DNA of 60,897 nucleotides, counting the filler. It is 5 parts of 5 records of this genome, joined end to end, with 100 filler letters (N's around TTAATTAATTAA, not from the genome) between each part and the next. Parts side by side here need not be neighbours in the genome. Positions count along the whole stretch, not along the records: positions 10,751 to 22,516 come from DRR723986_4567; 4 more parts are not named here. One strand, given 5' to 3'. Each line of letters begins with the position of its first letter. Position 1 is the first letter of the stretch. Shown here piece by piece: positions 10,651 to 22,616 of this stretch. Made by a program: the position numbers and the translations under genes. Under the pieces are notes generated by a model. The model was not told where the DNA came from and searched no databases. It was given only the letters and a program-made list of their open reading frames with translations.

Positions 10651-10750
10651 NNNNNNNNNNNNNNNNNNNNNNNNNNNNNNNNNNNNNNNNNNNNTTAATT
10701 AATTAANNNNNNNNNNNNNNNNNNNNNNNNNNNNNNNNNNNNNNNNNNNN
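10651..10750. other. Artificial contig-joining spacer
   Basis: N44-TTAATTAATTAA-N44 (stops in all frames). Confidence 0.98.
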
Positions 10751-11464
10751 GCCACCCCAGCCAAGTTCGTAGTAGGCCCACCAGCTACCCAGTGTGATAC
10801 CAATGGTTAAGAACAACCACGCGATATTGGTCCAGGGTCGTGACCACCGCGCCCAGCTGGCATCCATACGCCCGCTGAGTAAGGCTGCGATGGCAAAGGC
10901 GAACGCCACGGAAAAGCCCACGTAGCCGATGTAGAGCATCGGCGGGTGAATGACCATGCCAGGGTCTTGCAGCAGGGGGTTGAGGTCTTGGCCATCTGCA
11001 GGGGTATTCAGAAGGTTGCGCGCAAACGGGTTCGAGGTAAACAGGGCAAAGCCGAAGAAGCCAATGGCAACCATGCCCATGACCGACAGCACTCTCGCCA
11101 AAATATCCAAGGGGAGTTGCTTGGAAAACACCGCCACGGCAACGGTCCACAGGGTCAGAATCTCCAACCACAATAACAAGGAGCCCTCGTGCCCACCCCA
11201 CAGCGCACTGAATTTATACGCGACGGGCAATTGAGAGTTGGACTGCAGCGCCACAATATTGACGGAGAAATCATCGCTGAGAAAAGCGTAAAACAGGGCG
11301 CTTATGGCCAGCGTGGTGAACAGACACTGCCCCCACGCCAGGGTCGCGCCTGCAGCCATTGCGCGCCGGTCTCCACGCCAGACACCCAACATGGGAACAA
11401 CCGCTAATAACAGCGCAAAAGCAAAACCAAGAATGAGCGAGAAGTGCCCCAGTTCAATAATCAC
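10751..11464 (-). CDS. ccmF: Cytochrome c heme lyase CcmF, N-terminal part
   Basis: [47 protein letters not shown]; truncated by spacer. Confidence 0.95.
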
Positions 11465-11940
11465 GAGCCGTTGTACTCCTTGCCTGCTGTCGCCTCCTCG
11501 GCACGTGACTGCGCAGATTTTTCCAGGGCTTCGCTGACTTCCGGCGGCATATAATTTTCGTCGTGTTTGGCTAGCACTTCATCCGCGTAAAACACCCCGT
11601 CTTCAGCAAGCCGACCGGTAACCACCACGCCTTCGCCCTCGGCGAAGAGATCAGGCAAGATCCCTTCATAGGCCACCGCTACGCTGGCACTGTAATCCGT
11701 CACGCGAAAGCGAACTTTCAGGCTGTCAGTGGCACGCTCCACGGAGCCCTCTTCCACCATCCCGCCAGCGCGAATCTTTTTGTCGACCGGCGCTTTGCCC
11801 GCGACAATATCGGCAGGTGGGTAAAACAGGTTAATGTTCTCTCGCAAGGCGTAACCCAAGAACGCCGCCGCTGCCGCACTGGCAAGTAAAATAAACACGA
11901 CGATTCCAAGGCGCTGTTTACGCAGGGGGTGCATGGCCAT
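11461..11940 (-). CDS. ccmE: Heme chaperone CcmE
   Basis: N-terminal [19 protein letters not shown] heme-binding motif. Confidence 0.95.
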
Positions 11941-11961
11941 TACAGCCTCCGTAGCAATAAT

Positions 11962-12147
11962 TTAAAACTGATTTTCAGCCTGACGGCGGCGGGCCGCTGC
12001 CGCCGCTAGCGCCCGCGCATTGCGACCGCGACGCCGCGACTCAAATACCAGAGCACACAGCACGATCGCACTGGCGGCAAAACTGAACCACACGTAAGGG
12101 CCGTGACCATCCATTTGCCAAAGCTGTTGAAGATTTGCAAATACCAC
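11962..12147 (-). CDS. ccmD: Heme exporter protein CcmD
   Basis: MDGHGPYVW motif, single TM, basic tail, position between ccmC and ccmE. Confidence 0.9.
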   Translation of the reverse strand: MVFANLQQLWQMDGHGPYVWFSFAASAIVLCALVFESRRRGRNARALAAAAARRRQAENQF

Positions 12148-12160
12148 TATTACCTCTCCC

Positions 12161-12904
12161 TTACTTGCCGCTCACCAACGCTTGCACCCAACGGGTATTT
12201 TTCTCTCGCTCAATGATCTCGGCGCGAACGAACAGCAACAGTACCCAGCCAAAAAACAGATACATACCGCTGAGCGTTGCCATCAACGGGCGCAACATCG
12301 TCGGGTGAATCGTTGATTCACCGACAAACTTGATGCTGGCAGGCTGGTGCAGGCTATACCACCACTCCACAGACCAGTAGATGATCGGGATGTTCACCGC
12401 GCCAACAATTGCCAGCACCGCGCAAGCGCGCGCAGCGGCGTCGCGGTTTTCAAAAGCTTGATGCAGGGCGATCAGCCCCAGATACAGGAAAAACAGAATC
12501 AATACGGACGTGATGCGGGCGTCCCACACCCACCATGTTCCCCAGGTGGGCTTCCCCCACACAGCGCCAGTCAACAGCGCAAGAAACGTCAGTGCTGCGC
12601 CAATCGGCGCCGCGGATTTCATGACAATGGCCGCCAGCTTCATACGCCATATCAAATGTACTGCGGCTGCGGTTGCCATCAGCATATAGCCGCCCATCGC
12701 AACGGCGGCGGCGGGAACGTGGATGTAGATAATGCGGAAACTATTCCCCTGCTTAAAATCAGCGGGTACAAAGGCGAGCCCCCACACACAACCCCCAACA
12801 AGCAGTAGCAAGGCGGGAATCGCCAACCAAGGCAACAGGCGCCCGCTAAATTGGTAAAACCAGCGTGGGGAGCCCCATTTGTGAAACCATTGCCAATTTG
12901 CCAA
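12161..12904 (-). CDS. ccmC: Heme exporter protein CcmC
   Basis: RIIYIHVP, WGKPTWGTWWVWDAR (WWD motif), WWYSLHQ. Confidence 0.95.
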   Translation of the reverse strand: MANWQWFHKWGSPRWFYQFSGRLLPWLAIPALLLLVGGCVWGLAFVPADFKQGNSFRIIYIHVPAAAVAMGGYMLMATAAAVHLIWRMKLAAIVMKSAAPIGAALTFLALLTGAVWGKPTWGTWWVWDARITSVLILFFLYLGLIALHQAFENRDAAARACAVLAIVGAVNIPIIYWSVEWWYSLHQPASIKFVGESTIHPTMLRPLMATLSGMYLFFGWVLLLFVRAEIIEREKNTRWVQALVSGK

Positions 12905-12934
12905 AGCCTGTCTTTCCTTAATTCAAACCAATAC

Positions 12935-13621
12935 TTACTGATCCACGCTAATGCGCAGGGCGCCCCCAATGGCCAGCGGCGCCAGCGCGAGGGCTGTCAT
13001 CAACAGCGCCGCCAACACCGCCAGCGGCGGCAGATATGCCATGCCATCGATGGCGCTTTTCACCGCTGCACTGCCAAAAATCAACACCGGAATATACAGG
13101 GGTAAGACAATCAACGACAGCAATAGTCCACCCTTGCGCAAACCGACCGTCAAGGCGGCGCCAATCGCACCGATAAAACTCAATACCGCCGTGCCAAGCA
13201 ACAGGCTAACCATCAGTACAACAAGCCCCTCAGAGGGCAACTGCAGGATGGTTGCCAACAAAGGCGACAACAGGCTCAGCGGCAAACCACTGACCAGCCA
13301 GTGACCGAAGGTCTTCGCCAACACCAGTGGGTACAGCGGTAGCGGGCTCAACAACAGCTGTTCCAAAGTCGCGTCGTCGTAGTCTCCGCGGAACAGGCCA
13401 TCTGTTGCCATCATTGACGCCAGCAAGGCCACCACCCAGATAATGCCCGGTGCTAACACGGCCAGTTGCTGCCGCTCGGGGCCGATACCCAGCGGAAACA
13501 AACTGCAAACCATTAAGAAAAACAGCAGGGGGTTGCTCCACTCGCTACCGCGTCGCAGCGCAGCCTGCAAGTCGCGTCGCAACACGGCAAACATTACCGC
13601 ACCAGTGCCCATCGGGATCAC
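12935..13621 (-). CDS. ccmB: Heme exporter protein CcmB
   Basis: LFPLGIGP, DYDDATLEQL, LPLYIPVLIFG; GTG start overlapping ccmA stop (alternative ATG 13612). Confidence 0.93.
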   Translation of the reverse strand: MIPMGTGAVMFAVLRRDLQAALRRGSEWSNPLLFFLMVCSLFPLGIGPERQQLAVLAPGIIWVVALLASMMATDGLFRGDYDDATLEQLLLSPLPLYPLVLAKTFGHWLVSGLPLSLLSPLLATILQLPSEGLVVLMVSLLLGTAVLSFIGAIGAALTVGLRKGGLLLSLIVLPLYIPVLIFGSAAVKSAIDGMAYLPPLAVLAALLMTALALAPLAIGGALRISVDQ

Positions 13622-14256
13622 GACGCCTTCCCCAGCTCTATACGGCGCAATGGACGGGGCAAGGACAGTGGATGGTGGGTGGTTAACAACACCATTCCCC
13701 CGTTGTCGGCAAAGTCGCAGATCCACCGCTCTATTTCCGCGACGCCGCGCTGATCTATAGCGGTGAAAGGCTCATCCAATAACCAAAGCCGGGCCGGGCA
13801 GCAAAATAGTCGCGCCAGATTTACACGTCGCTGCTGACCCGCTGACAAGCTGTAGCAGGGCTGCTGAATAAAGTCGCCCAGCCCCACTGTCGTCAGGGCG
13901 CGATGCAAATCGGTGTCGGCAACATGCTGCCCCCGCACCGCACAACTCCAACGCAGGTTTTCCAGGGCGGTCAGCTGCGCTTTGATACCGCTGCCGTGCC
14001 CCAGGTACAAACTGTGCTGCCGAAAGTCTTCGCGCTGGGTGATCAAATTCTCACCCCGCCAGTGAATGTCGCCCTCGTAGCGTGAGGACAAACCGGCGAG
14101 AATCTTTAGCAACGTGGTCTTGCCACTGCCATTGGGGCCGGCCAGTTGCACAACGTCTCCAGCGCTAACAGACAGCGACAGGCCCGCAAACAACACGCGC
14201 TCATCTCGCTCGCTGTATAGGTTGTGTAACTTGAGGTCTGGTGGCGACAAACTCAC
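13618..14256 (-). CDS. ccmA: Heme ABC exporter ATP-binding protein CcmA
   Basis: GPNGSGKTT, LSAGQQRRV, LWLLDEPF, LTTH. Confidence 0.95.
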   Translation of the reverse strand: MSLSPPDLKLHNLYSERDERVLFAGLSLSVSAGDVVQLAGPNGSGKTTLLKILAGLSSRYEGDIHWRGENLITQREDFRQHSLYLGHGSGIKAQLTALENLRWSCAVRGQHVADTDLHRALTTVGLGDFIQQPCYSLSAGQQRRVNLARLFCCPARLWLLDEPFTAIDQRGVAEIERWICDFADNGGMVLLTTHHPLSLPRPLRRIELGKAS

Positions 14257-14420
14257 TCTCGCTGCTCAAGGCCACCGCATGGCGGCAGTCCGATTTAAAA
14301 CGCGGCTAAGTATATACGAAATAACATCGAAATCCGCGCCCGGAATCTGGCGCGGCAATTTGTCGCAGCGGCAAAAGCCTCGCTGACAGGCTGGTGAGTG
14401 CACCCACTACGAGATGGCGG

Positions 14421-15236
14421 TTACTGACCGCCAGATTGATGGCGCTGTAGCCAGCGCTCCATATCCTGGGTCACGAGGTCGAGGTAGGCTAACGCCTTAT
14501 TCAGCTTGTCGCCCTCACTCTCACCCCGGAATCCCATCAAGCGATTGCGCACCCAGGCCAATTCGCTGACGAGGTCACTGATTTGCGGCTCGCTGACACG
14601 CGCCGCCGCGGGTGCCGATTTCAATTCCTTGTCCACCACCGAAGTCGCTGGGCTATACAGGCTATCCAGCAAGGTGTTCAATTTTGCATCGGATTGCGGC
14701 GCGCGACCGGAGGTGGCGGCAGGCCGTGGGTTCGCAGCCGATGACCGCCCCCCTGCTGCCGCGTCGAAAAATACATCCAGTAAGGCATCGCCACTACGCG
14801 GCGCGGGCGCGTCAGGCTTCGCTTTCGACTCGTCACCAGCCTGCCCTGCAGCCTTCAGCAGGCGTCCTCTGAGTTCATCGGGAATACGATTAACGGTTTG
14901 GTGATTAATCAGCCGGCTCAACATCACTTCAATCGCGCTTGTCGCGCCGATAATCAGCGAAACCAGACTCGGGCTGAGGGCAATACGCCGCGTTCTGAGC
15001 CTATCCATTACGCGTTCACTTAAACGCGCACACTCGGTTAGCTCGGCCAGTTCCAGGACCGCAGCACCGCCATAGAGGGTGTGAAAGCCGCGGTGGATAT
15101 CATCCAGTATTCGCTGACCATCATAGCCGTACTGCAGCTCTTCCAGCTGCGCAAACAAGCCCTTAACAATATCTTCGGCTTCCGCCAAAAATATCGCCAG
15201 GATACCTTCGTGTTCGTTTGCGTCCACAGTATGCAC
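14421..15236 (-). CDS. Truncated CheA-derived protein: P1 (Hpt) + linker + dimerization-like helices, no ATP-binding or CheW-like domain
   Basis: FLAEAEDIV...IHRGFHTLYGGAAVL matches the CheA P1 pattern IFRGFHTVKGGAGFL; C-terminal LVSELAWVRNRL...LDLVTQDM matches the CheA P3 pattern; stop follows directly. Confidence 0.75.
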   Translation of the reverse strand: MHTVDANEHEGILAIFLAEAEDIVKGLFAQLEELQYGYDGQRILDDIHRGFHTLYGGAAVLELAELTECARLSERVMDRLRTRRIALSPSLVSLIIGATSAIEVMLSRLINHQTVNRIPDELRGRLLKAAGQAGDESKAKPDAPAPRSGDALLDVFFDAAAGGRSSAANPRPAATSGRAPQSDAKLNTLLDSLYSPATSVVDKELKSAPAAARVSEPQISDLVSELAWVRNRLMGFRGESEGDKLNKALAYLDLVTQDMERWLQRHQSGGQ

Positions 15237-15364
15237 TCTATTGTTATTGATCTCAGGCCAGCTGGATCAGCGAATCCGGGTTCGTAATGGCTGGCAATTA
15301 TGCGCAAAGTCTTGCAGTAACACTGTTGGCCCGGTCACAAAGGGCCGATTTTGTAATCAAATGG

Positions 15365-15832
15365 TCATGTTTTCGACGTATTCGTGCAAAACAGCTCACG
15401 AATTTTGCTTTCCAGCATTGCCGCCGTAAACGGCTTAACGATGTAGGCATCCACCCCAGCCTGCGCAGCGGCGAGGATTTTTTCCCGCTGCGCGTCAGCC
15501 GTGACGATCATCACCGGTATATGCCTCAGGGCACTATCGGCGCGAATAACCCGCAACAGCTCCAACCCTCCCATTTCAGGCATCAACAGATCGGTAATCA
15601 CTAAGTCGAAGTGTTGGTTGTGAAGCATGGGCAATGCCACGCTGCCATCATCAGCTTCACTAATGCGCGCATAACCCAGATCGTTAAGCAAATTGCGCAT
15701 CACACGACGCATGGTGGCGAAATCCTCGACCACCAGAATTCTGATATCGCGCAAGGACGACGCCCCCCGGGCGGGCGAGTCGCTGGCGACATCACTGCTG
15801 GCAAAAGGATCGGGGGAGCGCTCATCACTCAT
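15365..15832 (-). CDS. cheY: Chemotaxis response regulator CheY (with ~25-aa N-terminal extension)
   Basis: ILVVEDFATMRR, VITD phosphoacceptor, VTA, YIVKPFTA; start overlaps fleN end. Confidence 0.88.
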   Translation of the reverse strand: MSDERSPDPFASSDVASDSPARGASSLRDIRILVVEDFATMRRVMRNLLNDLGYARISEADDGSVALPMLHNQHFDLVITDLLMPEMGGLELLRVIRADSALRHIPVMIVTADAQREKILAAAQAGVDAYIVKPFTAAMLESKIRELFCTNTSKT

Positions 15833-16652
15833 GCGGCGCCTCCATTCCAACGGGCTGCTGAATCAGGTTCTCTAGGAAAAACGCAAGCTGGCCCGACGGC
15901 TTGCGCGGCAGAGGCCAATCGCTCACCCGCGTTGCCAAGTCCCGGAACGCCCGCGAGGCCGGTGCACTCGGGGCATAATCGACCACTGGCTGTTGCTTTT
16001 TCACCGCCTCTCTCAATGCCGGGTCAAATGGAATGCTGCCGCTGTAGATGAGACTGACTGTTAAAAACTGCTCGCAGACACCTGCCAGCTTTTGAACCAA
16101 GCGGCGCCCCTCATCTTCGTCGCTAACCATATTGGCCAGAATGCGGAAACGTTGGCGGCCAAAATCACGATTCAATAATTTGATCAGCGCATAGGCGTCG
16201 GTCAGTGACGAGGGCTCATTACAAACCACCACCAGCACCTCCTGGCAGGCGTTGGTAAAGGTTAAAACGGTGTCGGTGATCCCCGCTGCCGTGTCGACGA
16301 TCAATACGTCCAGCTGCGCGGCCAGGTCACTGAATGCCCGGATCACGCCGGCATGCTGTAACTCACTCAGGCGAGTCAGCTGCCGTGCGCCGGAGGATGC
16401 CGGGATAATGCGCACACCAGACGGCCCGCTAATCATTGCTTCTTCCAGTGAGCACTCGCCGCTAAGGACCTGCTCAATAGTCTGCGGGGCCGACAGCGAC
16501 AACAAAACATCAACGTTAGCCAAGCCAAAGTCGGCGTCGAGAATCGCCACGCGCTTACCCTGGTGCGCCAGCGCCACAGCGGTATTGATAGCGACATTGG
16601 TTTTTCCTACACCGCCTTTGCCGCCGCTTACCCCAATAACCTGAACCGTCAT
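15825..16652 (-). CDS. fleN: MinD-like ATPase FleN/FlhG
   Basis: GGKGGVGKTN deviant Walker A, DADFGLANVD, DTAAGI, EPSSLTDAYALIK, C-terminal amphipathic FFLENLI. Confidence 0.9.
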   Translation of the reverse strand: MTVQVIGVSGGKGGVGKTNVAINTAVALAHQGKRVAILDADFGLANVDVLLSLSAPQTIEQVLSGECSLEEAMISGPSGVRIIPASSGARQLTRLSELQHAGVIRAFSDLAAQLDVLIVDTAAGITDTVLTFTNACQEVLVVVCNEPSSLTDAYALIKLLNRDFGRQRFRILANMVSDEDEGRRLVQKLAGVCEQFLTVSLIYSGSIPFDPALREAVKKQQPVVDYAPSAPASRAFRDLATRVSDWPLPRKPSGQLAFFLENLIQQPVGMEAPHE

Positions 16653-17206
16653 AAAGCGCGTCTCCCGGCAAGGGTGTTTTGTGGGTATCGATAGCTACCA
16701 AGATAGCGGTGCCGGGTATCGAGGTATCGCAATCCGATTTGGGCCAGCTCGCGCCTAAGCAGCCGCTGATGCAATGTGGGGCAATCAACAAATACCAGCC
16801 CGCTGGCGGTCGACCACGCTTCCCGGTATGCCTCATACACGGGGTTTACGCGCATGGTGCCGAGTAAGCCGCCCAGCCAAAGCCCAAAGAAAATCAACGC
16901 GCTGGGCAGGGCGTAGCGAACCACTGCCTGCATCGCCTCGGAGAGCTCGCGGCTGTATGGCCAGAGCACGGTAATCAACACCGCTGACATGACGGCGGCC
17001 CAGACTGCACCACGCCAGCTGAGCCCAGGAATATCACTCAGCTGCAGCTCATTGAGATGTGGCAACGACGCTGCCGGAGAACGCGCCTCGTCCCTCGCCC
17101 ACAATCGCAGGCGCCAGTGCGTGCCCTGCTCACGCTGCATCTGCGCCCAACATTCCAGCGCAGACAATGCGGATGCATCGGGAATAACAAATACCAGTTT
17201 ATTCAT
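16649..17206 (-). CDS. Hypothetical two-TM membrane protein
   Basis: 185 aa, two hydrophobic segments (WRGAVWAAVMSAVLITVLWPY; ALPSALIFFGLWLGGLLG); 3 nt after fliN stop, ATGA overlap with fleN. Confidence 0.7.
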   Translation of the reverse strand: MNKLVFVIPDASALSALECWAQMQREQGTHWRLRLWARDEARSPAASLPHLNELQLSDIPGLSWRGAVWAAVMSAVLITVLWPYSRELSEAMQAVVRYALPSALIFFGLWLGGLLGTMRVNPVYEAYREAWSTASGLVFVDCPTLHQRLLRRELAQIGLRYLDTRHRYLGSYRYPQNTLAGRRAL

Positions 17207-17209
17207 AAG

Positions 17210-17599
17210 CTATCGCAGCGACTGCAAACGTTCGGTGGCACTCACAACCTCGGTCAGCCGAATACCAAGTTTGTCATCAACCACCACCACCTCTCCCCGC
17301 GCAATCAGTCGGCCATTGACGAGGACATCCAGCGGTTCACCTGCTTGGCGGTCCAGCTCCACCACTGCGCCCTGCTGTAACTGCAGCAGGTCGCGGATGG
17401 CCATGTCACTGCCACCCACCTCTAGCGTGACGCGGACGGGAATGTCCATCACCATATCGAGGTCCGGCGCCGCCGCTGTGCGCTCTCGAAGCCGGGCCTG
17501 CCCCAACAGGTCAGACGCTCCAGACGACTCTCCCTCTTCCGCTTCTATTTGTTGGCGCAGCATCTCACGCTCTCGCCGCAGGTTTTCTGGCTCTGTCAT
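17210..17599 (-). CDS. fliN: Flagellar switch protein FliN
   Basis: LDMVMDIPVRVTLEVG, GEPLDVLVNGRLIARGEVVVV SpoA domain. Confidence 0.93.
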   Translation of the reverse strand: MTEPENLRREREMLRQQIEAEEGESSGASDLLGQARLRERTAAAPDLDMVMDIPVRVTLEVGGSDMAIRDLLQLQQGAVVELDRQAGEPLDVLVNGRLIARGEVVVVDDKLGIRLTEVVSATERLQSLR

Positions 17600-17617
17600 T
17601 GCCTCACTCCTTATACG

Positions 17618-18571
17618 CTATGCGCGCCCTTTTATTTTTAACGCCAACTGCCCCTTGCTCATACCGACACTGGCCTTGAGCAGCGATACGCCGGATGCCC
17701 GAATTTCCGCTTGCTGACAACTCCCCAAGCTCAGCACATCCCCCACTTTTAAATTGGCGACCTGCCCCAGTGTCATCGCCTTATCTGCCAACACGCAGCG
17801 GGTAGGCAGTGGCGTATCCAGCACGGCGCGCTGCATGGCGCCTTGCCACTGCGGGTCGGGTGCCCGGCTCTGCGCCAGCTCACTCTGAGAGAGACTCTCA
17901 CGCAAGGGCTCGAGCATTGCCAGAGGAAAACACATATGTAGCTCGCCACCGCCGCCGCCCTCGGCATCCAATTGAAAACGGCAAACCACAACGGTGTCCG
18001 CCGCGCCAACGATATTGGCCAGCGAGGGATTCAACTCGGTGCCCATCGGCTTACATTGCAGTGCGGCAACAGGCTTGCACGCTTCTTCAAAGTCAGCGTG
18101 AGCGCGGCTGAGGAGCTTGCCGATCAAACGTCGCTCGGAGGGGCTAAAATCGCGACCATCCGGCACACCCTGGGCCTCGCTGCCGCCGAAGTAGATTTCC
18201 ACTAAGCGAAAGACCAAGCGCGCATCAAAGACCATCATCGCCGTACCCAGTAGCGGCTCGACGCGCATTAAATTCATACTTGAGGGGATATACAGCGAAT
18301 GAAGATATTCCGCGTAGGGCGAGAATTGTAGCTCCAGCAGGCTGACATCAACGTCCTGCCCCAGCACGTCGAGCAAACTACTGCGAAAATGTTCGGCAAA
18401 GCGCTTACTCAGTTGCTCTAAACCCGGCAGGCGACGTGCCTTCGGTTGCTGCCGAGTCGCCAGATCAAACTGGGCATAGCTGGGCTTGGGCTCGATGCCG
18501 GGAACTGCTGGCTCGTCCTTCACGGCGGCCAGTAGCGCGTCTATCTCTGCTTGAGAAAGCAAATCCTTCAT
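17618..18571 (-). CDS. fliM: Flagellar switch protein FliM
   Basis: N-terminal DLLSQAEIDALL CheY-binding peptide, FGG motif, RDFSPSE, C-terminal SpoA (LKVGDVL). Confidence 0.9.
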   Translation of the reverse strand: MKDLLSQAEIDALLAAVKDEPAVPGIEPKPSYAQFDLATRQQPKARRLPGLEQLSKRFAEHFRSSLLDVLGQDVDVSLLELQFSPYAEYLHSLYIPSSMNLMRVEPLLGTAMMVFDARLVFRLVEIYFGGSEAQGVPDGRDFSPSERRLIGKLLSRAHADFEEACKPVAALQCKPMGTELNPSLANIVGAADTVVVCRFQLDAEGGGGGELHMCFPLAMLEPLRESLSQSELAQSRAPDPQWQGAMQRAVLDTPLPTRCVLADKAMTLGQVANLKVGDVLSLGSCQQAEIRASGVSLLKASVGMSKGQLALKIKGRA

Positions 18572-18610
18572 CGCTGCTTCTGCCCCCTCGGCCACCACCA
18601 GCCTGTGTTA

Positions 18611-18624
18611 GTCAAAAAAATGAC
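18611..18624. promoter_or_regulatory. FleQ-type binding site upstream of fliM
   Basis: GTCAAAAAAATGAC, the exact reverse complement of the box at 20295-20308; fits the GTCA-A/T-rich-TGAC FleQ consensus. Confidence 0.6.
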
Positions 18625-18630
18625 GCGCAC

Positions 18631-18963
18631 TTAACAACGCTCCCTGAGTACCCGAAGTGTTATTGCCAAATGTTCCTCAACACGCCGAAGCGCCAGGTTT
18701 GCCGCCGCGGAATCTGTGTCCTTTGCAGCACCCTCCAGGCACTTGCACTCCTCAGCCAAAGCCAATGCAGCCATCCCTAATGCCCCCCCTTTTAAGGTGT
18801 GCGCAATGCGTCGTAGCCGCTCAAAGTCGCTGGCGGCGAAGGCGTCTTGCGCATCAGCGATACGCTGCTGACAATCGCGCTCAAAACTCGCGACCAACAC
18901 ACCGATATCACTGCCCATAACCCGCCGAAGTTCGTCGTATTGTTGCTGGTCAATTGTTGTCAT
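18631..18963 (-). CDS. Stand-alone Hpt phosphotransfer protein (HptB-like)
   Basis: AHTLKGGA motif with the phosphorylatable His; ~110 aa helical; position between fliG and fliM. Confidence 0.85.
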   Translation of the reverse strand: MTTIDQQQYDELRRVMGSDIGVLVASFERDCQQRIADAQDAFAASDFERLRRIAHTLKGGALGMAALALAEECKCLEGAAKDTDSAAANLALRRVEEHLAITLRVLRERC

Positions 18964-18992
18964 AGCTATCCCTGCAAAAGCCAATAAGCGGG

Positions 18993-20273
18993 TTAGTTTC
19001 CAAGTGATAATTTGCGACTGTCGAGCACGATCTCGCCAACACCTGCCAGCCGTTTAGCGGCGGCAACAAGCTCCTGTTTGGCGAGCTCTACTTCGCCATT
19101 AGAGGGCTGCCCAAGCAGACGCTCTTCAGGGTGCTGACTCTGCAGCGCGTTTTGCAATGCCGCACGTAATTCACCGGTGGCGCCTTCAAGCGCACGCAGG
19201 GCGGTCTGCGGGTTGAGCTGAGACACCAGATTTTTCATATCGGCCTCCGTCAAGCGCTGCAACTGATCAAACCCAAACATCTGGTCTTCAACACGCTCGG
19301 CCAGGCCTGGGCGATGCTCCCTCAAGCCCTCCAACAACGCACTTTCATCGGCAACATCCAGCTCATTAAGCAACGCGGCTGCCAGGCTTTCCCCGGTTAA
19401 ACGGCGGCCACTGTGGCCACGCGCGTTCAAGTATTCTTCAATCAACCAATCCAATTCCGCCAACGCAGCGGTCGACAGGGACTCCAACGACGCCAAACGG
19501 CTGAGTAACTCCCTGCGTCGCTGGGGGTCAAAACAGGTAATAACGGCCGCCCCCTGCGCTGGTTCCAAACAGGCGATCAGTACGGCCTGTATTTGCGGAT
19601 GCTCCCTGCGAAGCATGTCCGCTATGGTATCTGCCGCCAACCATTTCAATTTAGCGATCTGCTGCGACTGCCCCTGCAGCGCCAGGTTGCTTTTCACCAG
19701 GGCCGCCCGCTCTTCACCGAGGGCCTCCTCAAGCAAATCGCGAATATCTTCTGCCTGGCTGGGCCGCACCAGGGAAAACTGCAGCATATCGTCGTTAAAG
19801 CGTGCCAGTAATTGCGCTAGCTGCCCGGCATCCGGCGTTGCCAGGGTGGCCATGTAGCCGGTCAATGCTTGAATTCGTTCCGGGCTGAATTCACGCATCA
19901 CGCTTGCGGCAACTTTCGCCTCCAGGGCCATTAGCACCATGGCGGCTTGCTCGGGGGAGCACTGTGAGGTTTGCCCGTCCAGCCAGTGATCAATCACCGC
20001 CGCGACACGCGCTGGTTCACCCTCAGCGGTGGTGCGCAGCAAACGCAAATGAACACCGTAGTCGACCCGTTTATGTTTTTTGACTCGGGGTTTGGTCGCT
20101 GGCTGCGACATAAGTTGTATAAATAGCGCTACGGAGAGGCTTGCGCCGCCGGACAACAGGCTCACACTGAGCCACTCCGCCTGCCTGAGCAGCGCCGCGA
20201 CCGCTGCACCGCCGAGCAATGCGACCAGCAGGAAAAACTGGAATGTAATCAGCACGCGCGGGGCTATTGCCAT
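18993..20273 (-). CDS. fliG: FliG with N-terminal TM anchor and FliF C-terminal motif (FliF'-FliG fusion)
   Basis: Two N-terminal hydrophobic segments; YGVHLRLLRTTAEGEPARVAAVIDHWL (FliF C-tail pattern); then FliG motifs ALGEERA, EHPQ, MFGF, GEIVL. Confidence 0.8.
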   Translation of the reverse strand: MAIAPRVLITFQFFLLVALLGGAAVAALLRQAEWLSVSLLSGGASLSVALFIQLMSQPATKPRVKKHKRVDYGVHLRLLRTTAEGEPARVAAVIDHWLDGQTSQCSPEQAAMVLMALEAKVAASVMREFSPERIQALTGYMATLATPDAGQLAQLLARFNDDMLQFSLVRPSQAEDIRDLLEEALGEERAALVKSNLALQGQSQQIAKLKWLAADTIADMLRREHPQIQAVLIACLEPAQGAAVITCFDPQRRRELLSRLASLESLSTAALAELDWLIEEYLNARGHSGRRLTGESLAAALLNELDVADESALLEGLREHRPGLAERVEDQMFGFDQLQRLTEADMKNLVSQLNPQTALRALEGATGELRAALQNALQSQHPEERLLGQPSNGEVELAKQELVAAAKRLAGVGEIVLDSRKLSLGN

Positions 20274-20294
20274 TGGCTAGCCCCTCCACTAATA

Positions 20295-20356
20295 GTCATT
20301 TTTTTGACAGCGCTGATTTTCAAAGCCACTCAAACCCGTTTCGTCAAATTATTGAC
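20295..20356. promoter_or_regulatory. Pair of FleQ-type boxes in the leader of the fliFG operon
   Basis: GTCATTTTTTTGAC (20295-20308) and GTCAAATTATTGAC (20343-20356). Confidence 0.65.
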
Positions 20357-20426
20357 AGTAGCACCTGCGCATATACATTGGTTATCAATGACTTACGCGA
20401 CTAGTTACTGCCTACACTGACTGTAA

Positions 20427-20442
20427 TGCAGGTTTTAGGCCA
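20427..20442 (-). promoter_or_regulatory. Putative sigma54 (-24/-12) promoter of the switch operon
   Basis: Minus strand TGGCCTAAAACCTGCA = GG-N10-GC, pointing toward fliFG. Confidence 0.55.
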
Positions 20443-20449
20443 GCTGAGC

Positions 20450-21364
20450 TTACAGCCGCACTTCGACAAAAGGCAGAGACTGAGGGCCACCCGCATCAAT
20501 GCTCTGGGCGGCGTCAAAGGGGTGAGCCTCGCGCTCGGCAGAGCGGTCAATATTGAGGTTGGCAAAGTCAAACAAGTCGCGATCTGCGAGCTGTGAGGGA
20601 GCAATGTTTTGCATTGCCGAGAAAATTTTCTCTATACGGCTACCATCCTGCTTTTCCCACTCCAGAAGCATCTTGCGGATATTCTGGCGCTGCAGATTTT
20701 CTTGCGAACCACAGAGGTTGCAGGGAATGATGGGGAACGCTTTATAGGCTGAAAAGCGTTCGATATCCGCCTCCCGGCAATACGCCAGCGGACGAATAAT
20801 GACGTTGCGCTTGTCGTCAGACAGCAGCTTTGGCGGCATCGCAGCCATCCTGGAGCCATAGAACATATTCAAAAACAGCGTCTGTACGATATCGTCTTTG
20901 TGGTGTCCGAGCGCGATTTTCGTGGCGCCAATTTGCTCGGCAAAGCCGTACAGCGTTCCCCGCCGGAGTCGCGAACACAACCCACAGGTGGTCTTGCCCT
21001 CGGGGATTTTCTCTTTGACGATTGAGTAGGTGTCTTTGTTAACAATGTAGTACTCGATACCCAGCGTCTCGAGGTATTCGGGAAGAACATGCTCAGGGAA
21101 GCCCGGCTGCTTCTGGTCCATATTCACCGCGATCAACTCGAAGGAGACCGGTGCGCTCTTTTGCAGGTTCATCAGGATATCGAGCATGGTGTAACTGTCT
21201 TTACCACCGGACAGGCAAACCATTACCCGGTCGCCCTCTTCGATCATCTGAAAATCCTCTATCGCCTGCCCGGTGTGGCGGCGAAGGCGCTTCTGCAACT
21301 TGTTAAATTCCAGCTTAGACATTGCCGGCGTCGCAGAACTCGGGGTTTCAGAAGCGGAAAACAT
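20450..21364 (-). CDS. ttcA: tRNA 2-thiocytidine(32) synthetase TtcA
   Basis: SGGKDS PP-loop, [24 protein letters not shown]; start chosen at MFSASE. Confidence 0.95.
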
Positions 21365-21658
21365 AGCTATTGCCTGTGTATCGGTGAACGAAGACGAGCG
21401 GCGCATTATATAGAGTTGGCTAAATATCAGCCACAAAGGCTTGAAAAATTCCCCTTCCGGCGTTGGAAACGCCGCTGCGACTGGTAATCTTTGCCTTAGG
21501 TGTCTATTATTAGCGCGCCAAAATCTGCTGGCATGAGGTGTTATTTTTACACGGCCAGACCCCGGCACGGGTGCATGCCGGATTGTGTAATCCACGTCCG
21601 GTCGCACCCGCTCACAACCGGCTTAAGACCAGATCACTTACCAGAAAGGGAACGCTCC

Positions 21659-22516
21659 ATGAAACAACCCGTTCGTGTCACCGTTACCGGTGCAGCAGGC
21701 CAGATTGGCTATGCACTGCTTTTCCGTATCGCTTCCGGCGCTATGCTGGGCGACGATCAGCCCGTCATTCTGCAACTGCTGGACATCACTCCTGCTCTGG
21801 ACGCGCTGGAAGGCGTAAAAATGGAGCTTGAAGACTGTGCCTTCCCACTGCTGAGCGGTGTTGTCTGCACTGACGACCCCAATGTTGGCTTCAAGGACAG
21901 CGATTACGCCCTGCTTGTTGGCGCTCGCCCACGTGGCCCCGGCATGGAGCGCAAGGACCTGCTGGAAGCAAATGCCGCGATCTTCTCTGTTCAGGGTAAA
22001 GCGATCGACGAAAATGCCAGCAAAGATATCAAAGTACTGGTAGTCGGCAACCCTGCCAACACCAACGCTCTGATCACTCAGCGCAATGCGCCTTCTATCA
22101 ACCCGCGCAACTTCACAGCAATGACTCGCCTGGACCACAACCGCGCGATGACGCAGATTGCTCAGAAAACCGGCAAAACCGTTAACGACGTAACGAACAT
22201 GACCATCTGGGGCAACCACTCTGCCACTCAGTACCCGGATCTGTTCAACGCAAAAGTTGCGGGTGAAACGGCCTCTGACCTGGTTGATCAAGAATGGCTG
22301 GAGAACGACTTCATCCCAACGGTTCAGCAGCGTGGCGCAGCCATCATCAAGGCACGCGGTGCGTCTTCTGCAGCGTCAGCAGCCAATGCGGCTATCGACC
22401 ACATGCGCAGCTGGGCACTGGGTACTGAAGGCGACGACTGGGTATCTATGGGCGTATACAGCGACGGTAGCTACGGCATTCAAGAAGGCCTGATCTACTC
22501 CTTCCCCTGCCGCTGC
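21659..22516 (+). CDS. mdh: Malate dehydrogenase (type 2), 3'-truncated
   Basis: [46 protein letters not shown]. Confidence 0.96.
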
Positions 22517-22616
22517 NNNNNNNNNNNNNNNNNNNNNNNNNNNNNNNNNNNNNNNNNNNNTTAATTAATTAANNNNNNNNNNNNNNNNNNNNNNNNNNNN
22601 NNNNNNNNNNNNNNNN
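22517..22616. other. Artificial contig-joining spacer
   Basis: N44-TTAATTAATTAA-N44. Confidence 0.98.

Follow-up and report, generated by a model that had tools for sequence, protein, structure and literature searches.

Open reading frame and domain organization

The window analysed here, a stretch of 60,897 nt (filler included) joined from five parts of the records of one genome, carries in the part derived from DRR723986_4567 (positions 10,751 to 22,516) an open reading frame (ORF) on the minus strand, at 18993..20273, that encodes a protein of 426 aa in one open frame. The protein, designated FliF'-FliG' (primes mark paralogs of flagellar proteins), consists of an N-terminal extension (aa 1–106), interpreted below as a remnant of FliF, followed by a paralog of FliG. 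FliF is regarded as the template for the flagellar cytoplasmic ring (C-ring), export gate and rod, and FliG as the torque-receiving rotor. The ATG is located at 20273, with the frame closed one codon upstream and a Shine-Dalgarno sequence (GGAGG, 20283..20287, minus strand) situated 9 nt 5' of it. No convincing match to a sigma-54 or sigma-28 promoter consensus was seen when 20274–20450 was scanned by eye.

The N-extension, like the rest of the ORF on the minus strand, can be divided into four segments. Two putative transmembrane (TM) helices, TM helix 1 (aa 5–29, 20187..20261) and TM helix 2 (aa 33–56, 20106..20177), have Kyte-Doolittle hydropathy maxima in a 19-residue window of 2.36 and just over 1.6, respectively, and are connected by only about 3–4 residues (the RQAE region). 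They are followed by a basic linker (aa 57–70, 20064..20105) containing 6 K/R and 0 D/E, which is expected to lie on the cytoplasmic side if the predicted TM topology is correct, and by a tail (aa 71–100, 19974..20063) with the sequence DYGVHLRLLRTTAEGEPARVAAVIDHWLDG. The AlphaFold2 model, computed from an alignment of 113 sequences, had a mean predicted local distance difference test score (pLDDT) of 87.2 and placed helices at aa 5–29, 33–56, 73–85 and 87–98, the last two forming the tail; pLDDT was 93–96 over aa 71–100 and 61 over aa 61–70 of the linker.

Downstream of the extension, the three FliG domains occur in order, all over the Pfam cut-off: FliG_N at aa 107–203 (19665..19955; PF14842, 9.7e-20), FliG_M at aa 215–285 (19419..19631; PF14841, 2.1e-21), recognizable also in the alignment by its EHPQ motif, and FliG_C at aa 316–417 (19023..19328; PF01706, 6.1e-15), whose torque helix is shortened and without the conserved charges. 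As a whole, the FliG part stays under the NCBIfam equivalog cut-off (TIGR00207, 151.2 bits versus 226.7). The domains PF01514 (YscJ_FliF) and PF08345, which build the FliF ring, had no match in aa 1–106 at E ≤ 10. When the whole protein was compared with the PDB by phmmer, the top match was the chain of a Vibrio FliF-FliG fusion (3.6e-34). Foldseek with the whole model retrieved FliG chains only (best 4.9e-13); this search is uninformative on the tail because the FliF C-terminus is a separate chain in the PDB. A sequence-only reading of the locus had described two closely spaced hydrophobic segments, a basic linker and a FliF-like tail running in frame into FliG, and each of these elements is present, with FliG_N beginning at aa 107 of the same open frame.

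Two other explanations raised by that reading, a start codon downstream of the TM region and an error of assembly, were considered. The first is contradicted by several features that support a start upstream of the TM region, namely the ribosome-binding site, the closed frame, conservation and apparent purifying selection. Spongiibacter marinus proteins are 98–99% identical to FliF'-FliG' (99% for the protein of S. marinus DSM 17750), homologues with the same N-extension are 431–460 aa long at identities down to 44%, and the tail motif DYxxxLxxLxxxAxEEPxRVAAVxxxWL is kept in relatives of 44–62% overall identity. Against the closest species, the ratio of nonsynonymous to synonymous substitution rates (dN/dS) was 0.07 for the FliG part and 0.17 for aa 1–106, the latter resting on few changes (about 10 nonsynonymous and 19 synonymous). 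An error of assembly can be dismissed as well: six Spongiibacter-type genomes were recovered in the family search, the fused frame is present in all five of the loci of this type that were read first (the sixth, L045, was read afterwards), and contigs from 4 studies (4 public runs), one of them 34.6 kb long, span positions 18600–20450 free of indels and joints. The homologues of the same architecture sought after that reading thus exist.

Similarity of the tail to the C-terminus of FliF

The tail was compared with an alignment of 19 canonical FliFs, taken from related genomes and a sample of the class and comprising 554 columns. With hhalign, the N-extension aligned to columns 441–552 (probability 90.8, E 1.2e-6), i.e. 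to the second TM helix (TM2) and the tail of FliF, and the tail alone aligned to columns 514–552 (probability 91.6, E 8.4e-7). The score of the latter alignment was 44.1, versus 8.1 with the reversed FliF alignment and a maximum of 19.3 (median 11.2) with 60 column shuffles.

A second, independent approach used a profile (A4) of mini-FliFs, short relatives described below which carry the tail, in a six-frame search through 401 genomes of the order. Matches were found in 139 genomes. By hand count, about 117 of these genomes gave a match confined to profile positions around 190–228 and located at the end of frames of 552–621 codons; in all six cases checked (G013, G109, G333, G389, G464 and G439), the matched frame was also the PF01514 FliF frame. 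The nine strong matches (E ≤ 1e-56) all came from Spongiibacteraceae, as did four weaker matches to the tail region (E about 1e-7), three of them in frames of hairpin size and one in a 362-codon frame, and no strong mini-FliF match was obtained outside Spongiibacteraceae among the 401 genomes.

Natural proteins in which the same junction occurs were also found. In an hmmsearch of 1.84e9 representative proteins, the tail positions aligned straight into FliG in 15 of the best 150 matches. Five of the 15 are 809–895 aa long (P0027, P0036, P0060, P0084 and P0094), and the two that were scanned, P0027 and P0036, carry PF01514 and PF08345 together with FliG N, M and C and hence are natural full-length FliF-FliG fusions. 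P0044 and P0066 are listed alongside the natural FliF-FliG fusions from public metagenome and genome proteins. Judged from these profile comparisons, aa 71–100 of FliF'-FliG' are homologous to the FliG-binding C-terminus of FliF. The resemblance noticed in the sequence-only reading was therefore well founded, the hhalign controls and the A4 matches at FliF ends agreeing on it.

Relatives retaining a periplasmic domain

In all eight Zhongshania loci, a separate ORF of about 226–250 aa, termed mini-FliF, lies 5' of the FliG paralog (331–341 aa). In its product, a first TM helix (TM1) and TM2 enclose a domain of about 110 aa, and a basic stretch and the sequence DYxDQLxRFKxIAxEEPxRVASVLSEWLNG follow. 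Pfam and NCBIfam scans of the Zhongshania mini-FliFs returned no meaningful family. In hhalign, mini-FliF matched FliF columns 336–552 (probability 96.4, E 1.1e-9), and the N-extension of FliF'-FliG' matched mini-FliF (probability 97.7, E 2.5e-12); TM helix 2 of FliF'-FliG' aligns with TM2 of both mini-FliF and FliF. In the AlphaFold2 model of mini-FliF (pLDDT 80 overall), the domain, with pLDDT of about 90, has an alpha-beta-beta-alpha-beta fold, and the top PDB matches of the model were S-ring/RBM3 (ring-building motif 3) chains of Salmonella FliF: 7d84_A (5.3e-4), 8zdt_A (5.6e-4) and 6sd3_Q (9.6e-4).

In other genera of Spongiibacteraceae, frames of about 540–575 aa contain an N-terminal hydrophobic segment, a domain of the same type as in mini-FliF, a TM helix and the tail, followed by FliG, in all five that were read. 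The N-terminal segment of four of these fused frames (L040:6712-8346, L041:7040-8647, L042:7025-8647 and L046:958-2571) ends in an A-x-A-like motif followed by QP (...AVAQP, ...SLAQP) and looks like a cleavable signal peptide, not TM1. In L044:7233-8372 (G067) and in P0037, the FliG' frame begins at the FliF-type tail with no in-frame TM segment; the L044 form may be either a soluble variant or one whose anchor is encoded by a separate small ORF in the gap of about 340 nt after ttcA.

A quick maximum-likelihood tree of the FliG parts (35 rows, including 11 canonical FliGs) placed the paralogs in one clade apart from the canonical FliGs (SH-aLRT 99). P0023, P0046 and L039–L046 belong to the same paralog clade as the protein of the window. 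Within it, the Spongiibacter hairpin forms and the Zhongshania split forms made up separate subclades (support 89 and 99, respectively), and forms with the periplasmic domain were distributed on several other branches. This placement of the domain-bearing forms indicates that the loss of the domain in Spongiibacter is a derived state. L043/P0026, also a hairpin form, branches apart from the Spongiibacter hairpins. Outside the paralog clade, P0145 (489 aa) is another hairpin fusion, with two TM helices, a short loop, the tail and a FliG with a canonical-looking torque helix. The removal of the periplasmic domains of the membrane/supramembrane (MS) ring, proposed from the sequence of one protein, is thus supported by intermediates, i.e. 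mini-FliF with its RBM3-like domain and the mini-FliF-FliG fusions.

Loss of motor signatures and retention of switch signatures

The FliG' torque helix is 3–5 residues shorter than that of canonical FliG and is variable between genera. In alignment A3, an arginine corresponding to R281 was found in 88 of 93 canonical rows but in none of the 20 paralog rows, and the column corresponding to D289 held D or E in 88 of the 93 canonical rows, whereas 14 of the 20 paralog rows had a gap there and one had E. R281 and D288/D289, in E. coli numbering, belong to the conserved charged residues of the torque helix that contact the stator. On the other hand, residues of the switch interface are preserved: the EHPQ of FliG_M, which faces FliM, is invariant (E224, H225, P226 and Q227) in alignments A1 and A2.

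The FliM paralog (FliM') encoded nearby behaves in the same way. The CheY-binding motif LSQxEIDALL is present in all 18 module FliM' proteins, twice as MSQ, and GGxG in 17 of them. Module FliM' proteins scored 143–167 bits with the Pfam FliM model, versus 100–111 bits for the FliM proteins of the flagellar clusters (G001–G005); the latter protein of S. marinus starts with MSGVLDPEELEALM, unlike the LSQAEIDALL of FliM' (cf. L038:13142-14095). By motif and family matches, the FliM, FliN and CheY-like parts of a switch complex are present in the module.

Genes of the module and their chromosomal location

FliF'-FliG' is the first of eight genes on the minus strand, in the order FliF'-FliG', Hpt, FliM', FliN', a 185-aa protein, an FlhG paralog, a CheY-like protein and a 271-aa Hpt protein. 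The second gene (18631..18984) encodes a small histidine phosphotransfer (Hpt) protein of 117 aa, Hpt1 (Pfam Hpt, 8.7e-11). FliM' (17618..18598) carries LSQAEIDALL at its N-terminus and a GGGG motif and reaches 230 bits with TIGR01397 (cut-off 219.6), and FliN' (17210..17599) scores 112.7 bits against a cut-off of 84. The 185-aa protein (16649..17206) has central hydrophobic stretches, in which two putative TM helices can be seen by eye, and matches no Pfam or NCBIfam family; most versions of the module have it, at 22–44% identity, between the genes of FliN' and FlhG', and a protein-atlas search with it returned unnamed clusters only (score ≤ 0.90). FlhG' (15825..16652), a MinD-type ATPase with a C-terminal GxLxFF helix, is 50% identical to the FlhG of the flagellar cluster. 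CheY' (15365..15850) is a single-domain response regulator similar to CheY (PRK10610, 152.6 bits; cut-off 189). The 271-aa protein, HptX (14421..15236), was found in the family scan to have an Hpt domain like the P1 domain of CheA and no kinase domain; this is followed by a low-complexity linker and a conserved C-terminal part of about 55 aa, which has no Pfam match and may resemble the P3 dimerisation helix of CheA. HptX is syntenic in most module versions. By tblastn, four loci of other genera (L040, L041, L042 and L046) lack Hpt1 and FlhG', and three of them also lack HptX. None of the eight module genes encodes an export gate (FlhA, FliPQR, FlhB), rod or stator protein; stator families were not searched genome-wide.

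In the window, the module is flanked by a ttcA-like tRNA-thiolation gene (20450–21607, minus strand) and by the cytochrome c maturation genes ccmABCE (11461–14256, minus strand). In all family loci for which the fetched stretch includes a flank, 21 of 22, it sits between ttcA and ccmA (the count leaves out L014–L017, which are other FliG loci; L043 stops at a contig end before ttcA), and the stretches read showed no sign of mobile-element genes at the module borders. The ttcA-ccmA interval is therefore the fixed chromosomal address of the module across the family. Farther out, the translations of the ORFs at 10703..11464 (minus strand) and 21500..22564 (plus strand) end in runs of X (about 10703 and about 22520–22564), which points to masked sequence or N's within a ccmF-like and a malate-dehydrogenase-like gene.

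Coexistence with an ordinary flagellum

A family search matched 38 of 40 Spongiibacteraceae genomes, with two FliG matches in 34; according to our own classification by identity and frame length, about 36 of the 40 contain a paralog-type FliG match. In each of five genomes checked there is a single canonical FliF and a single FlhA, along with two FliM. In S. marinus, a full fliE-to-flhB and flhA-flhF-flhG-fliA cluster is located elsewhere in the genome. FliG', FliM' and FliN' share 25%, 28% and 60% identity, respectively, with the flagellar copies. FliF'-FliG' is thus a paralog that exists beside the normal FliF and FliG of a marine bacterium with an ordinary flagellum. This coexistence, the loss of the torque-helix charges and the context of a paralogous module go beyond what had been read from the ORF itself.

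Possible origin and function

These data show a minimal FliF remnant (TM helix 1, the short loop, TM helix 2 and the tail) joined naturally and in frame to a divergent FliG paralog. We consider it likely that the protein forms part of a switch complex that is anchored in the membrane, responds to CheY and does not rotate or secrete. A FliF paralog may first have lost RBM1, RBM2 and the beta-collar, giving rise to a mini-FliF with a single RBM3-like domain. Zhongshania would still have this stage as a gene of its own and other genera as a fusion to FliG', and the lineage of Spongiibacter would afterwards have lost the remaining periplasmic domain too. In the resulting protein, the TM hairpin would tether FliG' to the inner membrane and the tail, as the high pLDDT of the model suggests, may fold back in cis on the fused FliG_N as the FliF C-terminus does on FliG-N in motors. 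FliG' could then gather FliM' and FliN' into a switch complex resembling a C-ring, fed by a phosphorelay from Hpt to CheY' in which CheY~P acts on FliM', while the FlhG paralog may service the membrane-anchored platform. Such a complex would work beside the ordinary flagellum and not as its replacement, and the FliF remnant may have no task other than anchoring FliG.

The absence of motor and export functions would follow from two arguments. With no periplasmic ring, there would be nothing to house an export gate or a rod, as had been proposed for the hairpin from the start; with no torque-helix charges, there would be no contact with stators. Together these would imply neither a motor nor a secretion device. 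Assembly of a ring, intramolecular binding of the tail, binding of CheY' and the lack of rotation and secretion are all predictions.

Several observations weigh against this interpretation. No match to aa 1–106 was obtained in Pfam or NCBIfam even at E ≤ 10. In hhalign, only TM helix 2 and the tail align with FliF; that TM helix 1 corresponds to TM1 of FliF is an assumption. A hidden Markov model of the tail alone (A6) retrieved from all PDB chain sequences 9 weak unrelated matches and no FliF chain, and when phmmer paired aa 76–118 with the FliF tail in 8z4d, the Vibrio fusion, the score was -0.3 bits, which is not significant. The number of changes behind the dN/dS value of the N-extension is small. 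Some of the contigs covering the locus are from RNA libraries, and since the presence of a contig does not show transcription, they were not used as evidence of expression. Finally, the argument on stator contact draws on the sequence of FliG' by itself, and stators elsewhere in the genome were not searched.

The first of these points could be taken to mean that the extension is not derived from FliF at all but is an unrelated membrane anchor whose amphipathic helices converged on the FliF tail, a view to which the shortness of the tail (about 30 aa) and its failure to retrieve FliF chains from the PDB also lend themselves. We regard this as scarcely credible, since the profile-profile matches fall exactly on the C-terminus of FliF, far over the shuffle controls, the order-wide search retrieved almost exclusively FliF ends, an RBM3-like fold lies between the two TM helices of the Zhongshania intermediate, and the same profile positions run contiguously into FliG in the natural full-length fusions. 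That the module is a functionless remnant in decay, left over from a second flagellar system, is also highly improbable. Decay would explain why switch and regulator genes are all that remains, why the periplasmic domain was lost stepwise and Hpt1, FlhG' and HptX are missing from some genera, and why the torque helix is degenerate and variable; however, the frames are intact and occupy the same position in all 21 family loci with a flank, paralog-type matches occur in most genomes of the family, the motifs have been kept despite a deep divergence (to about 30% identity), and dN/dS is low (0.07–0.17).

More weight, although still unlikely in our opinion, can be given to an accessory role, in which the module has no structure of its own and acts on or within the canonical flagellum, its products serving, for example, as alternative switch subunits, as auxiliary ones or as an FlhG'-based regulator of flagellar number or placement, with the TM-anchored FliG' lying beside the real MS ring. 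A full flagellar set was found in every genome checked, the FlhG paralog and FliN' have retained 50% and 60% identity, respectively, to their flagellar counterparts, and FliM' has kept its CheY-binding motif, all of which would suit such a role. The degree of divergence is less favourable, since FliG' and FliM' share only 25% and 28% identity with the flagellar copies, and so are the missing torque-helix charges and the maintenance of a complete FliG/FliM/FliN trio throughout the family. In addition, a FliF-type tail in cis would presumably occupy the groove of FliG_N and leave no room for docking on canonical FliF. A membrane-anchored switch complex separate from the motor, formed by FliF'-FliG' and its partners, is in better agreement with these features.

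A bolder form of this proposal, which we put forward tentatively, is that FliG', FliM' and FliN' form a self-standing membrane-anchored C-ring with no MS ring, rod, gate or stators, a conformational or signalling device driven purely by CheY~P. If this were true, the device could be, for example, a polar hub operating with the FlhG paralog or a sink for CheY~P that tunes the real motor, and the Spongiibacter form would represent a C-ring able to assemble on a TM hairpin and a FliF tail alone. Irrespective of its exact role, the family presents a graded series, from split mini-FliF with an RBM3-like domain through the mini-FliF-FliG fusion to the hairpin-only fusion. Throughout it, the junction of FliF with FliG and the interface of FliM, FliN and CheY are retained, while everything that secretion and rotation need is removed. 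The series makes it possible to test what minimum of FliF is required to nucleate FliG/FliM/FliN assembly and whether a switch complex can serve the cell in ways other than driving a motor. For annotation, it argues against scoring these "FliG C-terminal domain-containing proteins" as motility genes.

Comparison with known systems

In full-text searches of the literature, supplementary files lying outside them, no description of a hairpin-only FliF-FliG protein or of this module was found; in the text of the Zhongshania paper, the string FliG matched only the word "flight". One of the closest known arrangements is that of the canonical motor, in which the FliF tail is bound to FliG-N (Salmonella C-ring structures 8umd, 8vib and 9n49). 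FliF'-FliG' resembles it in having two TM helices, the pattern of a two-helix tail and FliG N, M and C, but differs in lacking RBM1, RBM2, RBM3 and the beta-collar, in its loop of about 3–4 residues and in the covalent joining of the tail to FliG.

Laboratory fusions, in which the FliF tail likewise runs in frame into FliG_N, are available for Salmonella (Francis et al. 1992, as cited in PMC4768692) and for Vibrio alginolyticus (8z4d/8z4g). Such proteins have the whole periplasmic part of the MS ring and function in real motors, whereas FliF'-FliG' lacks both this part and the torque-helix charges. A natural FliF-FliG fusion of Chlamydiaceae, containing part of an SctJ-like region and only a FliG-M-like domain, has been described (Bergeron 2016, PeerJ, PMC4768692) in a non-flagellated host with very few flagellar genes (PMC4768692). 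As far as the relevant passages of that source describe it, it is similar to FliF'-FliG' in being natural, in its reduced periplasmic region and in its setting outside an ordinary flagellum; on the same basis, FliF'-FliG' differs in having no periplasmic domain, a full-length FliG, a module of FliM, FliN, FlhG and CheY paralogs and a full flagellar set in the genome.

The natural fusions found in this study share with FliF'-FliG' the same junction between tail and FliG_N. They comprise the full-length forms (P0027, P0036, P0060, P0084 and P0094) and the mini-FliF-FliG forms (P0023 and P0046; L039–L042 and L046), which retain all or one of the periplasmic ring-building domains, respectively. 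Among them, the protein encoded in the window is the most reduced form.

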